Shown one piece after another: positions 1 through 4,087 of a stretch of 4,087 bases of DNA (position 1 is the first letter of the stretch; each line of letters opens with the position of its first letter). The notes beneath the pieces were generated by a model, which searched no databases, had not been told where the DNA came from, and saw nothing but the letters and a program-made list of their open reading frames with translations. Made by a program: the position numbers and the translations under genes. This DNA comes from a virus (lineage: Duplodnaviria > Heunggongvirae > Uroviricota > Caudoviricetes). The stretch lies in the IMG/VR virus record IMGVR_UViG_2606217110_000019, positions 1-4,087 of that record; one strand, 5' to 3'.

Positions 1-17
1 AAGATTATTGGCCGTTT

Positions 18-2014
<1,997 letters not shown>

Positions 2015-2020
2015 GAGTGT

Positions 2021-2025
2021 TCCCT
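2021..2025 (-). promoter_or_regulatory. Shine-Dalgarno (AGGGA) for istA
   Basis: Reverse complement of tccct at 2021-2025, with a 6-nt spacer to the ATG at 2012-2014. Confidence 0.5.
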
Positions 2026-2050
2026 TTGTGGTGTAGGAACCTTAAGGAAA

Positions 2051-2103
2051 CAACATGTTGGGTGGAGCGGACAATCCAAATGGTGAATTACTGTCTTATA
2101 TCA
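2051..2103. repeat. IS terminal inverted-repeat region, istA-proximal end, including a perfect 10-bp palindrome CAACATGTTG
   Basis: AGCGGACA at 2066-2073 is the complement of the TGTCCGCT motif; palindrome at 2051-2060. The reverse complement of about 2066-2090 matches window 18-39. The outer boundary is uncertain. Confidence 0.45.
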
Positions 2104-2334
2104 TTGGCGCTGACAACGCTGCTCGTTGAGTTGTGATTTTGCTTCTTCCAGTCCATCCAGCAAATCAGCGATAATATCCGCTTCCCGATGACGGATGTGA
2201 CGCTTAAACGCAGCAAGAGCCGCATCACAATCCCGTTCAGCATTTGGGCTGTCCGGGATAGCCTGATACCACGCCAGCGTCGACTGATAGTTTTGTGCTG
2301 CCTCACGAAGCGCCTCATAGTTAACCTCTCTCAT
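2101..2334 (-). CDS. Hypothetical small acidic phage protein (77 aa); last gene of the coupled cassette, ending at the IS junction
   Basis: ATG at 2332-2334 overlaps the TGA of the upstream gene (ATGA at 2331-2334). Predicted helical, acidic protein with no motif I recognise. The TGA stop at 2101-2103 lies at the predicted IS boundary, so the native C-terminus may be altered. Confidence 0.5.
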   Translation of the reverse strand: MREVNYEALREAAQNYQSTLAWYQAIPDSPNAERDCDAALAAFKRHIRHREADIIADLLDGLEEAKSQLNEQRCQRQ

Positions 2335-2627
2335 TGAGCCACCTCCTGATAAATCACCGCATGCCCCAGTTTCTCCGCCAGTGCCAGCTCTGCCTTAGCG
2401 CCCGCTGACCGCTGCCAGCCTTTCAGCATGTAAATCGCATCCACACAACGAATCATTGCCATGCAAATATCCATGTAGTGCGGCTGTGTCAGCCCGTCCG
2501 GAAGTACTGCCGGGTTCAAGACTGTATGCCCTTCCCGTTTCAGTTCCTCTTCCGCCTTGTGGAACGCCTCACGGTTGAAATTTTTATACCCGGTCATTGG
2601 ACCGGCAATATAAACTCTCACCCTCAC
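2331..2627 (-). CDS. DUF4406 / nucleoside 2-deoxyribosyltransferase-like small phage protein (98 aa)
   Basis: N-terminal VYIAGPMTG motif resembles the Y-x-AGP nucleoside-binding motif of the NDT-like fold; a Glu-rich C-terminal segment (GAKAELALAEKLG) may hold the catalytic Glu. Starts with GTG at 2625-2627, overlapping the upstream TGA (GTGA). Family assignment is from memory, not a search. Confidence 0.65.
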   Translation of the reverse strand: MRVRVYIAGPMTGYKNFNREAFHKAEEELKREGHTVLNPAVLPDGLTQPHYMDICMAMIRCVDAIYMLKGWQRSAGAKAELALAEKLGHAVIYQEVAQ

Positions 2628-2941
2628 TCCTGAACTCTCCTGTCGAAATAAACGTAGTTATTCACTGTGCGCAACGGCATTCCAAATTTTCTGGCGATTT
2701 CTCTCCTGGGTACGCCATGCTGATGCAGCTGTCGCGCCAGTTCAATATCACTCTGCGGATATTTTGTTGACTGGTGATAATCACCCCGTAACATCAGGCT
2801 GACACCCAGTTCCCGCGCTTTCGTTCTGACAGCATCACCTGTACGACCGGTCAGCCTCCCAATGCTTTCGACCGTCATCGTTCCCGCACACTGCCGGAGT
2901 ATCATGATTTCAGCCTCGTACCACTTCTTCCAGCCACTCAC
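2624..2941 (-). CDS. Small phage HTH DNA-binding protein (105 aa; possibly 93 aa from an internal ATG)
   Basis: C-terminal HTH-like segment [21 protein letters not shown] and a second candidate, [25 protein letters not shown]. The GTG at 2939-2941 overlaps the TGA of the upstream gene; an alternative ATG at 2903-2905 is preceded by GAGG. Confidence 0.6.
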
Positions 2942-3699
2942 CGCTGCAGCTCTCCGGTCGCGGTAATATCACGAAGAATATCCCGGTGCTTGTTCAGCTC
3001 CCGCAGCGCGGCGCAGACTCGTTCCCACTTCTGGACATGACTTTTCGCCCGACGCAGTTCGAGGTTTGCCATATGCAGCGATGGTAAAATCAGGTCATCC
3101 GCTCGCGTTTCAGTAAACGATGGCAGCGACTGCACAATGCCCGCTACAGTTTCTGTTTTAATTTCTTCCTGTGTTGCGGCTTCCCGGACTGGTAACGCAA
3201 CACCTGCTGGCTGAGGAAAGGCCTTACCATCATTTTCCGTTACCGATGCTGCTTTCGGCTCTGCTGGTAAATTACCGCCCGGCATGCAGTAACGAAATTT
3301 ACCGCTCTGATTAACGCGTGCCAGCCGCCCCGTTGCAGTTACCACCGCCAGCGTGGAAGCAACCTTGCGAGTACTGATGCCGAACTTACCCGCCAGTTCT
3401 TCACACGTTTTAGCCCCATCCTGACCGATAAACTCAATCATCATGTCTGCTGTAACTTTTTGTTCGACCTCCCCGGTCAGCATATCCTGTGCTTCAGATT
3501 TTACTGGCCGCTCTTCGGTTACCAGGGATTCACCTTCGCCAGCCAGAAACCAGGTGTGACCAGTTTTATCAACGACGCCATTTCTTTTGAGTTCCCACAG
3601 CTCGTTGAGAACCTCTTCACGACTGATATCAAGTCGCGCGGCCAGTTCTACCGATGTGGCTTTTCCCATTGCTTTCAGTGCGTCAAAAACGGTTTCCAT
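2938..3699 (-). CDS. Phage protein with two winged-helix-like modules (DUF1627-like, 253 aa)
   Basis: ATG at 3697-3699 with a strong GGAGG Shine-Dalgarno 8 nt upstream. Two similar wHTH-like segments ([30 protein letters not shown] and [33 protein letters not shown]) separated by an acidic linker. The DUF1627 resemblance is recalled, not searched. Confidence 0.75.
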
Positions 3700-3707
3700 T
3701 AAAATTT

Positions 3708-3712
3708 CCTCC
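3708..3712 (-). promoter_or_regulatory. Shine-Dalgarno (GGAGG) for the 253-aa gene
   Basis: Reverse complement of cctcc at 3708-3712, 8-nt spacer to the ATG; lies in the 21-bp gap after the dnaC-like stop. Confidence 0.55.
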
Positions 3713-3720
3713 GGACAAAA

Positions 3721-4087
3721 TTACTTCACAACCCTCAGGTGTCTGACATTCGAACGCCAGCTCTCCCAGTTAAAATTCACCCAGCGACCACCGTTCATGA
3801 CCATGCGGTCCATCACACGCTCGCCAAGAAGCGTACTCATCGCTACGTGGTTCAGGTTCGTCAGCATTCCGACACTACGCATCGAAGCCGTTCTGCGGTC
3901 GACTATCTGGTTCAGTGTGACCTGCTCGTTGCGCGTATCCCGCTGCATTCCGATTTCATCCAGGACAAGCAGGTCAACATCACACAACCCCTGTAAAAAT
4001 TTTTCGCCTGAGTTTTTGTTGTCGTAGCTGTTGTGTAACGCCAGCATCACATCAGCCACCGTTATCACAATCACGCTGCGACCTTTC
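3721..4087 (-). CDS. dnaC: DnaC-like replicative helicase loader, C-terminal part (5' end lies beyond the window)
   Basis: Translation ...KGRSVIVITVADVMLA...DVDLLVLDEIGMQ...IVDRR...GMLTNLN...LGERVMDRM...WVNFNWESWR is closely collinear with the C-terminal half of E. coli DnaC (Walker B, sensor region, conserved C-terminal tail). The frame stays open to the window edge; TAA stop at 3721-3723. Confidence 0.88.
   Translation of the reverse strand, partial: KGRSVIVITVADVMLALHNSYDNKNSGEKFLQGLCDVDLLVLDEIGMQRDTRNEQVTLNQIVDRRTASMRSVGMLTNLNHVAMSTLLGERVMDRMVMNGGRWVNFNWESWRSNVRHLRVVK

Follow-up and report, generated by a model that had tools for sequence, protein, structure and literature searches.

The DUF4406 gene and its setting

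The window analysed here is a stretch of 4,087 nucleotides from a virus of the class Caudoviricetes (IMG/VR record IMGVR_UViG_2606217110_000019, positions 1 to 4,087). Its subject is a 297-nucleotide open reading frame (ORF) on the minus strand, running from 2627 to 2331, whose 98-amino-acid product belongs to the DUF4406 family. The gene immediately follows the replication genes of a Rac-type lambdoid prophage, within its early rightward operon. The residues that the protein retains suggest that it is most likely an enzyme acting on 2'-deoxynucleoside 5'-monophosphates (dNMPs). The gene and its two junctions are as follows.

2331-2627, minus strand: DUF4406 coding sequence, 98 amino acids (96 possible from the GTG at 2621), supported by the ORF list, Pfam, dN/dS and RefSeq
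2624-2627, minus strand: GTGA overlap of the DUF4406 start with the stop of the upstream helix-turn-helix (HTH) gene, read from the sequence
2331-2334, minus strand: ATGA overlap of the DUF4406 stop codon (TGA) with the start of the Ead/Ea22-like gene, read from the sequence

These overlaps predict that the DUF4406 gene is translationally coupled to both of its neighbours. Two candidate GTG start codons, at 2627 and 2621, are each preceded by a Shine-Dalgarno-like GGAG (2621-2640). The GTG at 2627, which is the start used by RefSeq, has a GGAGAG 7 nucleotides upstream and overlaps the stop of the upstream gene. The GTG at 2621 has a GGAG 5 nucleotides upstream and yields a 96-residue product that begins in the way most homologues do (MK[IV]YIAGPM), so perhaps this second GTG is the true start.

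The protein matches Pfam PF14359 (DUF4406) with an E value of 3.3e-38 (130.4 bits, versus a cut-off of 22), and residues 4-93 align to positions 2-91 of the 91-position profile. Among the PHROGs, its match is phrog_355, 'nucleoside 2-deoxyribosyltransferase' (E=3.7e-48). No NCBIfam model matches it, and a PADLOC search returned 0 families at E<=0.01. The first-pass annotation, made from the letters alone, had singled out the motif VYIAGPMTG (residues 5-13) and described the product as a mini-protein. The latter term does not suit it, because 98 amino acids is the normal size for a family whose Pfam model has 91 positions. All of the family-invariant residues that were tested (G9, F22, P39, S74, G76 and E80) are present in the window protein.

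Comparison of 51 distinct alleles from viral contigs with the window gene gave dN/dS values of 0.013-0.19, which indicates strong purifying selection, and a RefSeq copy in E. coli that is 100% identical carries the name 'DUF4406 domain-containing protein'. Together, the selection and the identical RefSeq gene exclude a chance ORF and identify a functional gene. At a nucleotide identity of at least 80%, the gene is found in 1211 of 5426 complete E. coli genomes (22%), with the chromosome as its location in nearly all cases. The finding is therefore ordinary: the gene is an already known, RefSeq-annotated and full-length member of a common family.

Fold and superfamily relationship

The AlphaFold2 model of the protein, built with 32 homologues, has a mean predicted local distance difference test score (pLDDT) of 88.5 and a predicted template modelling score (pTM) of 0.83, and comprises a four-stranded parallel sheet with three helices. 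When this model was compared with the PDB by using Foldseek, the first 43 places were all occupied by enzymes of the nucleoside 2'-deoxyribosyltransferase (NDT) superfamily, with TM scores of roughly 0.7 on the query and 0.5 on the larger targets. These include the NDTs of T. brucei, Bacillus, Leishmania and Chroococcidiopsis, as well as DNPH1/Rcl, MilB and BcmB. The model also matches DUF1937 (PDB 1T1J, a hypothetical protein of P. aeruginosa, 17% identity), which is functionally uncharacterised and adds no functional information. Structural matches in BFVD are phage proteins named NDT or DUF4406.

Profile comparison points in the same direction. A DUF4406 profile (A4) matches T. brucei NDT (2A0K) at E=1.1e-5 with 25% identity and E. 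faecalis NDT (7M5H) at E=8.6e-4, and it matches BlsM, BcmB and MilB at E=0.0043, 0.0073 and 0.012. Actinophage members of DUF4406 reach 28.5 bits on the NDT model PF05014, for which the cut-off is 28.8. The window protein itself has no PF05014 match at E<=0.01, a phmmer search of its single sequence against the PDB gave no match, and a shallow enterobacterial profile (A1) retrieved noise only. Pairwise hhalign runs of A1 against DNPH1 and L. leichmannii NDT produced no usable alignment.

The predicted structure thus assigns the DUF4406 protein to the NDT (NDT/DNPH1/MilB) superfamily fold, in a stand-alone and minimal form that ends after strand 4 of the model. Relatives cover positions 1-92 or 1-98 of the 117-position PF05014 model. 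A Rossmann-like fold of the NDT type had been proposed from the sequence motif, and the model and its Foldseek matches bear this out. In the comparison with LOG and SLOG folds that had also been suggested, neither Pfam nor the listed structural matches include an entry of either kind.

Active-site residues

Residues were mapped by HMMER profile alignments to the solved enzymes TbNDT (the T. brucei enzyme), LmNDT, EfNDT (the E. faecalis enzyme), BlsM, BcmB and MilB. Conservation was assessed in three samples: 119 diverse domains from the clade that includes the window protein, 32 sequences that include actinophage members, and 69 domains of a distant clade (loci L095-L174). Four segments of the window gene encode the relevant positions.

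2589-2612, minus strand: Y6-I-A-G9-P-M-T-G13, the end of strand 1 and a glycine-rich loop; Tyr6 would be the triad tyrosine and the loop a putative phosphate/sugar loop
2508-2516, minus strand: N38-P39-A40, in which Pro39 occupies the column of the transferase-type 'water-excluding' proline
2463-2465, minus strand: Cys55, in the third catalytic-triad column, which holds Asp in DNPH1, MilB, BlsM and BcmB and Asn in TbNDT and DmtZ
2388-2408, minus strand: S74-A-G76-A77-K-A-E80, motif S-x-G-A-x-x-E, with Ser74 as the putative 5'-phosphate ligand and Glu80 as the putative nucleophile

Five positions (G9, F22, S74, G76 and E80) are invariant in 119 of 119 domains. Glu80 aligns with the catalytic Glu of TbNDT, EfNDT, BlsM, BcmB and MilB and is also present in 67 of the 69 distant domains. 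The catalytic Glu that had been anticipated for this protein is thereby accounted for. The S-x-G-A-x-x-E motif as a whole is aligned with D-x-G-x-x-x-E in the NDTs and with S-P-G-T-H-[VI]-E in BlsM, BcmB and MilB. At its first position, Ser74, all three nucleoside transferases have Asp, whereas the three nucleotide hydrolases have Ser, as do all 69 domains of the distant clade.

The Tyr6 column contains Tyr in 100 and Phe in 18 of the 119 domains, and Tyr in 69 of 69 distant ones. It aligns with the Tyr of deoxy-enzymes (KIYIAGP in T. brucei NDT) and with the Phe of the cytidine monophosphate (CMP) hydrolases BlsM and BcmB. Pro39 is kept in 116 of 119, 32 of 32 and 69 of 69 domains; its partners are the Pro of TbNDT, LmNDT and EfNDT, and the Ala (within 'NAH') of BlsM, BcmB and MilB. 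It lies in a conserved loop after strand 2 that is the family's own (N38-P-A-x-L-P-x-G-L...Y51), and by topology this loop might occupy the place of the base-contacting helix of DNPH1.

Position 55 is a clade-specific replacement of a catalytic residue amid otherwise strict conservation. Among the 119 domains of the window's clade, 75 have Cys, 19 have Asp and 9 have Ala at this position, and some others have Ser or Thr, whereas 56 of the 69 distant domains have Asp. The DUF4406 family as a whole thus appears to keep the canonical Tyr-Asp-Glu triad, and the enterobacterial branch appears to have swapped the Asp for Cys.

Comparison with characterised enzymes

DNPH1/Rcl, a 2'-deoxynucleoside 5'-phosphate N-hydrolase, uses a triad of Y24, D80 and E104, of which E104 is the nucleophile, and S98 and S128' serve as phosphate ligands (PMC10603095). 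Its catalytic Asp80 corresponds to Cys55 of DUF4406. DUF4406 lacks several of its features, namely the helical extension through which S128' reaches the partner subunit, the extra helix bearing E55/H56, and a shielding loop.

MilB, BlsM and BcmB are N-glycosidases of CMP and hydroxymethyl-CMP, 160-190 amino acids in length. In MilB, S97 is the 5'-phosphate ligand, and the substitution F17Y reverts the preference of the enzyme to deoxyribose (PMC10603095). Opposite Tyr6, 'N-P-A' and Cys55 of DUF4406, these enzymes have a ribo-specific Phe, 'N-A-H' and a catalytic Asp (the general acid), respectively. The Ser of the 5'-phosphate pocket, by contrast, is common to DNPH1, MilB, BlsM, BcmB and DUF4406 (Ser74).

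The NDTs of PF05014 (T. brucei, Leishmania and Lactobacillus) are the best matches of DUF4406 in both sequence and structure. Shared features are the 'YIAGP' motif of strand 1, a Pro that follows strand 2, and the nucleophilic Glu. They differ in having an Asp that binds the 5'-OH, where DUF4406 has Ser, and in possessing the last quarter or so of the domain, which DUF4406 lacks.

DmtZ is an NDT-like protein of the Z-genome phages Ghobes (Gordonia) and Wayne (Arthrobacter). As an N-glycosidase it is specific for dAMP, and it can also pass deoxyribose-5-phosphate on to 2-aminoadenine; it is partnered by a deoxynucleoside triphosphate (dNTP) pyrophosphatase, to which it is fused in Wayne (PMC12884076, 2026). 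Its active site comprises Tyr6, Asn77 and Glu103, together with Pro57, a non-acidic 5' pocket and the C-terminal Trp124'; the water-excluding Pro, represented by Pro57, is conserved in transferases (PMC12884076). We located DmtZ as Ghobes gp53 (locus L093, 22693-23178), whose GenBank name, 'deoxyuridine triphosphatase', looks like a mis-transferred one.

Like DmtZ, DUF4406 is a phage-encoded NDT-superfamily protein in a setting of nucleotide metabolism, and the two may have in common the triad Tyr, the nucleophile Glu, the transferase-type Pro and a non-acidic, nucleotide-type 5'-phosphate pocket. DmtZ works with a dNTP pyrophosphatase partner, and some DUF4406 genes adjoin MazG-like or PF18909 genes. 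The two also differ: DmtZ has 161 amino acids and a C-terminal lid (Trp124) that DUF4406 lacks, its Asn77 stands against Cys55, and it comes from Z-genome (PurZ0) phages, whereas the window's type of prophage shows no sign of modified DNA. By sequence, DUF4406 falls outside the DmtZ family; DmtZ has no PF14359 match, and a search for DmtZ homologues found DmtZ itself only. A weak full-length alignment of the two (hhalign, E=0.09) pairs Y6 with Y6, P39 with P57, C55 with N77, S74 with T97, G76 with G99 and E80 with E103. The Tyr, Pro, 5'-pocket and Glu columns of this alignment are supported independently by the A4 profile alignments.

Gene neighbourhoods in other phages

In ten diverse phages, DUF4406 genes are found amid genes for replication, recombination and nucleotide metabolism, including those for an exonuclease, Erf, single-stranded DNA-binding protein (SSB), a helicase, DnaQ, RusA, a dNMP kinase and a DNA methylase. 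A Pfam census of 150 neighbouring ORFs on the same strand, from about 46 non-redundant distant loci, counted C5 DNA methylase (5), DUF1064 (5), helicases (3-4), PF18909 (2), replication protein O (2) and NinX (2), with NinB, RusA, SSB, Gam and DpdA each occurring once. A fixed partner gene was considered and rejected, because the flanks are mosaic: at 80 loci of the E. coli type, the flanking genes fall into several unrelated families.

A dNTP pyrophosphohydrolase gene lies near DUF4406 in three phages. In mycobacteriophages Gaia and Optimus, a gene annotated as MazG-like pyrophosphatase is adjacent or one gene away, and in Optimus this name is backed by a Pfam PRA-PH match; the two phages share the next gene too and may represent one evolutionary event. 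In MalagasyRose, a PF18909 dATP/dGTP diphosphohydrolase gene is found two genes from DUF4406.

L092, 3004-3638: DUF4406 near a dNTP pyrophosphohydrolase gene, Gaia
L085, 2474-3323: the same association, Optimus
L094, 1856-3935: the same association, MalagasyRose

In addition, two structural matches in BFVD are named 'dATP/dGTP diphosphohydrolase N-terminal domain-containing protein', and these names suggest that the two entries are fusions. A locus search queried with the PF18909 protein found no loci. The pairing of DUF4406 with three unrelated kinds of dNTP pyrophosphohydrolase is infrequent, but it recurs, as is expected if dNMPs are the substrate.

Proposed function and alternatives

From the established gene, family, fold, conservation, residue correspondence and genomic context, we infer a substrate, a chemistry and a role. 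The DUF4406 protein is proposed to be a 2'-deoxynucleoside 5'-monophosphate N-glycosidase, a deoxyribose-5-phosphate transferase, or both, that acts early in phage replication to edit the dNMP pool, and we hold this proposal with moderate confidence. Its gene would be expressed together with the replication genes, as part of the early rightward operon. Glu80, positioned by Tyr6, would attack C1' of a dNMP to form a covalent deoxyribose-5-phosphate-enzyme intermediate, while Ser74 and the glycine-rich loop G9-P-M-T-G13 hold the 5'-phosphate. If water resolves the intermediate, the dNMP would be split into base and deoxyribose-5-phosphate. Alternately, a free base might resolve it, resulting in base exchange, which is conceivable because the transferase-type Pro39 is kept. 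In either case, the enzyme would serve the replicating phage by editing, sanitising or rebalancing the dNMP pool. The broader proposition that DUF4406 is a very large natural class of DmtZ-like deoxyribose-5-phosphate transferases or hydrolases, used by phages with ordinary DNA, is possible, and we regard it as tentative.

Several observations weigh against assigning dNMP chemistry to this protein. The residue assignments depend on alignments of low identity (15-25%), and the E value of 0.09 between DmtZ and DUF4406 is not significant alone. The third triad residue is Cys55, neither Asp nor Asn. The protein stops at about position 92 of the 117-position PF05014 model, and the missing final quarter or so is the segment that enters the neighbouring subunit's active site, which in NDTs is reached by a C-terminal Tyr. 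The gain from dNMP hydrolysis is not obvious for a phage with canonical DNA, and the association with dNTP pyrophosphohydrolases is occasional rather than general, the neighbours being mosaic. Finally, a literature search found no functional study of the DUF4406 family, and no biochemical or genetic data for any member.

The name attached to phrog_355 and to many GenBank entries points instead to a classical NDT (EC 2.4.2.6), which swaps bases between free deoxynucleosides for salvage. True NDTs are indeed the best sequence and structure matches, the T. brucei enzyme shares 'YIAGP', and the transferase-type Pro39 is present. However, where such enzymes bind the 5'-OH with an Asp, DUF4406 has an invariant Ser, which is also the residue of the nucleotide-specific hydrolases, the window protein has no PF05014 match and is missing the C-terminal part of the NDT domain, and the database names are inconsistent and unverified, with Pfam recognising DUF4406 only. 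We therefore consider a classical NDT unlikely. An enzyme of the MilB/BlsM/BcmB type, which would convert a ribonucleoside monophosphate to base and ribose-5-phosphate, shares the phosphate-pocket Ser and is unlikely to much the same degree. Tyr6 is found in the window protein and throughout the distant clade, Pro39 stands where CMP hydrolases have 'NAH', and their catalytic Asp is absent. In the window's clade, the variety at position 55 (Cys, Ser, Thr or Ala) and the truncated architecture could alternatively indicate a degenerate nucleotide-binding or regulatory subunit that is not an enzyme. Yet E80, S74, G76, P39 and G9 stay invariant in this clade (P39 nearly so, as counted above), dN/dS is 0.01-0.19, and TbNDT and DmtZ are active with Asn at the third triad position; a non-enzyme is accordingly very improbable.

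The first-pass annotation had also speculated that the protein sequesters or degrades an immune signal. In this case it would be a counter-defence protein, either a sponge or a cleaving enzyme, whose target is an immune signal derived from nucleotides or a molecule derived from NAD; the candidates are cyclic oligonucleotides, cyclic ADP-ribose isomers and NAD+/NMN. We consider this improbable. Retention of the full catalytic constellation argues for an enzyme rather than a sponge. To our knowledge, the known immune signals are ribonucleotides. Tyr6 is of the deoxy type, in the place where the ribo-specific CMP hydrolases have Phe (PMC10603095). As noted, PADLOC gave no match, and in other phages the gene is accompanied by genes for replication, recombination and dNTP hydrolysis. 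No signal-sponge entry is among the listed structural matches, and none of the listed PDB matches is named Tad1, Tad2 or Acb2, although no dedicated anti-defence library was searched. In a related scenario, the protein would be a stripped-down NDT/TIR-like glycosidase that relies on Glu80 only, has no general acid, and destroys an immune signal or NAD-derived molecule or otherwise neutralises nucleotide-depleting defences. This, too, seems very unlikely; the window protein has no TIR match in Pfam and is not closer to TIR than to NDT. The earlier interpretation thus survives with respect to the catalytic Glu, the NDT fold and the early operon, whereas the immune-signal component, like the term mini-protein, does not.

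The prophage locus and its insertion sequence

The part of the window from position 2116 to its end shares 99.9% identity with a prophage of E. coli strain 100248, in which the locus is intact. The order of genes there is repressor, Cro-like, YdaT, replication initiator, DnaC-like loader, DUF1627 (YdaW), a small HTH protein, DUF4406 and Ead/Ea22-like, followed further along by HokD, DUF968, RusA, an antiterminator-like gene and lysis genes. The Rac-SA53 phage has the same arrangement, and this order in both elements confirms the early-operon position that had been suggested from the window. The remaining features of the window are as follows.

48-845, minus strand: istB of ISEc62
842-2014, minus strand: istA of ISEc62
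2116-2334, minus strand: 5' fragment of the Ead/Ea22-like gene, downstream of DUF4406 (PF13935, E=3.2e-7), cut by the insertion sequence
2624-2941, minus strand: upstream HTH protein of the same operon, 105 amino acids (phrog_323, 'transcriptional regulator, D5-like', E=4.5e-28; weak HTH matches in Pfam)
2938-3699, minus strand: DUF1627 (YdaW-like) protein, 253 amino acids (PF07789, E=5.9e-97), named ydaW or DUF1627 in related prophages
3721-4087, minus strand, running off the window end: 3' part of a DnaC-like (YdaV-like) helicase-loader gene (phrog_50, E=8.7e-40; NCBIfam PRK12377, DnaC)

Positions 1-2115 are a 100%-identical copy of ISEc62, an insertion sequence of the IS21 family that runs off the left end of the window. 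The element is inserted into the prophage's Ead/Ea22-like gene, with the junction at 2115/2116. In strain 100248 the intact Ead/Ea22-like gene has 462 nucleotides, and 77 of its 153 codons are left in the window; the intact helicase-loader gene has 747 nucleotides.

The DUF1627 protein contains two winged-helix-like segments (residues ~2-50 and ~84-137), which weakly match many HTH families and the HTH part of the Csa3/CARF models of PADLOC. These segments are probably just a DNA-binding domain. In the strain 100248 prophage (locus L002, 13565-14043 and 6750-6905), a RelB/RelE pair is found beside the repressor, and a hokD toxin gene is located downstream of the DUF4406 region.

Extent and naming of the DUF4406 family

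An exhaustive HMMER search (E<=1e-3) yielded 12,255 clusters of DUF4406 proteins at 50% identity. By tblastn, the family is found in 526 of 50,697 GenBank phage records (~1%), and the hosts of these phages include Arthrobacter, Vibrio, Gordonia, Mycobacterium, Pseudomonas, Rhizobium and enterobacteria. Nearly all tblastn matches in phages end at query residue 74. The likely cause is masking, by the low-complexity filter of BLAST, of the Ala-rich SAGAKAELALAEKLG segment, in which the catalytic Glu is located, and coverage figures from this search understate the real alignment length.

GenBank labels for members of the family are inconsistent, and include NDT, 'deoxycytidylate deaminase', 'MazG-like pyrophosphatase' and 'hydrolase'. 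Informative fusions were considered as the source of the deaminase, MazG-like and hydrolase names in actinophages and were rejected, because the proteins are plain DUF4406 proteins of 120-130 amino acids by Pfam. These labels look like mis-transferred names. The genes concerned, for which Pfam finds DUF4406 only, are the following.

L083, 2477-2845: mislabelled actinophage DUF4406 gene
L084, 2504-2869: mislabelled actinophage DUF4406 gene
L085, 2474-2854: mislabelled actinophage DUF4406 gene
L086, 2501-2887: mislabelled actinophage DUF4406 gene

Long homologues were likewise considered as fusions, and a scan of 30 long proteins against Pfam and PHROG found only the DUF4406 domain; one long homologue consists of DUF4406 joined to the downstream Ead/Ea22-like gene. 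Many N-terminal extensions of homologues are probably artefacts of ORF calling in high-GC DNA.

One sub-family (phrog_5781, 220 columns) carries about 100 additional C-terminal residues, and this extension has no Pfam match. It could replace the C-terminal lid of NDT-type enzymes that other members lack. Members of this type are the following.

P0131: C-terminally extended member, phrog_5781 type
L153, 4998-5711: C-terminally extended member, phrog_5781 type
L145, 4998-5543: C-terminally extended member, phrog_5781 type

Conclusions

DUF4406 is one of the commoner uncharacterised gene families of phages. Its combination of a deoxy-type Tyr, a phosphate-type Ser, a transferase-type Pro and an invariant Glu provides a sharply testable hypothesis. 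DmtZ (2026) is the first natural deoxyribose-5-phosphate transferase, and if the hypothesis is correct, its chemistry would no longer be confined to a few Z-genome phages but would be shared by a huge family from phages whose DNA is canonical; hundreds of annotations could then be corrected.

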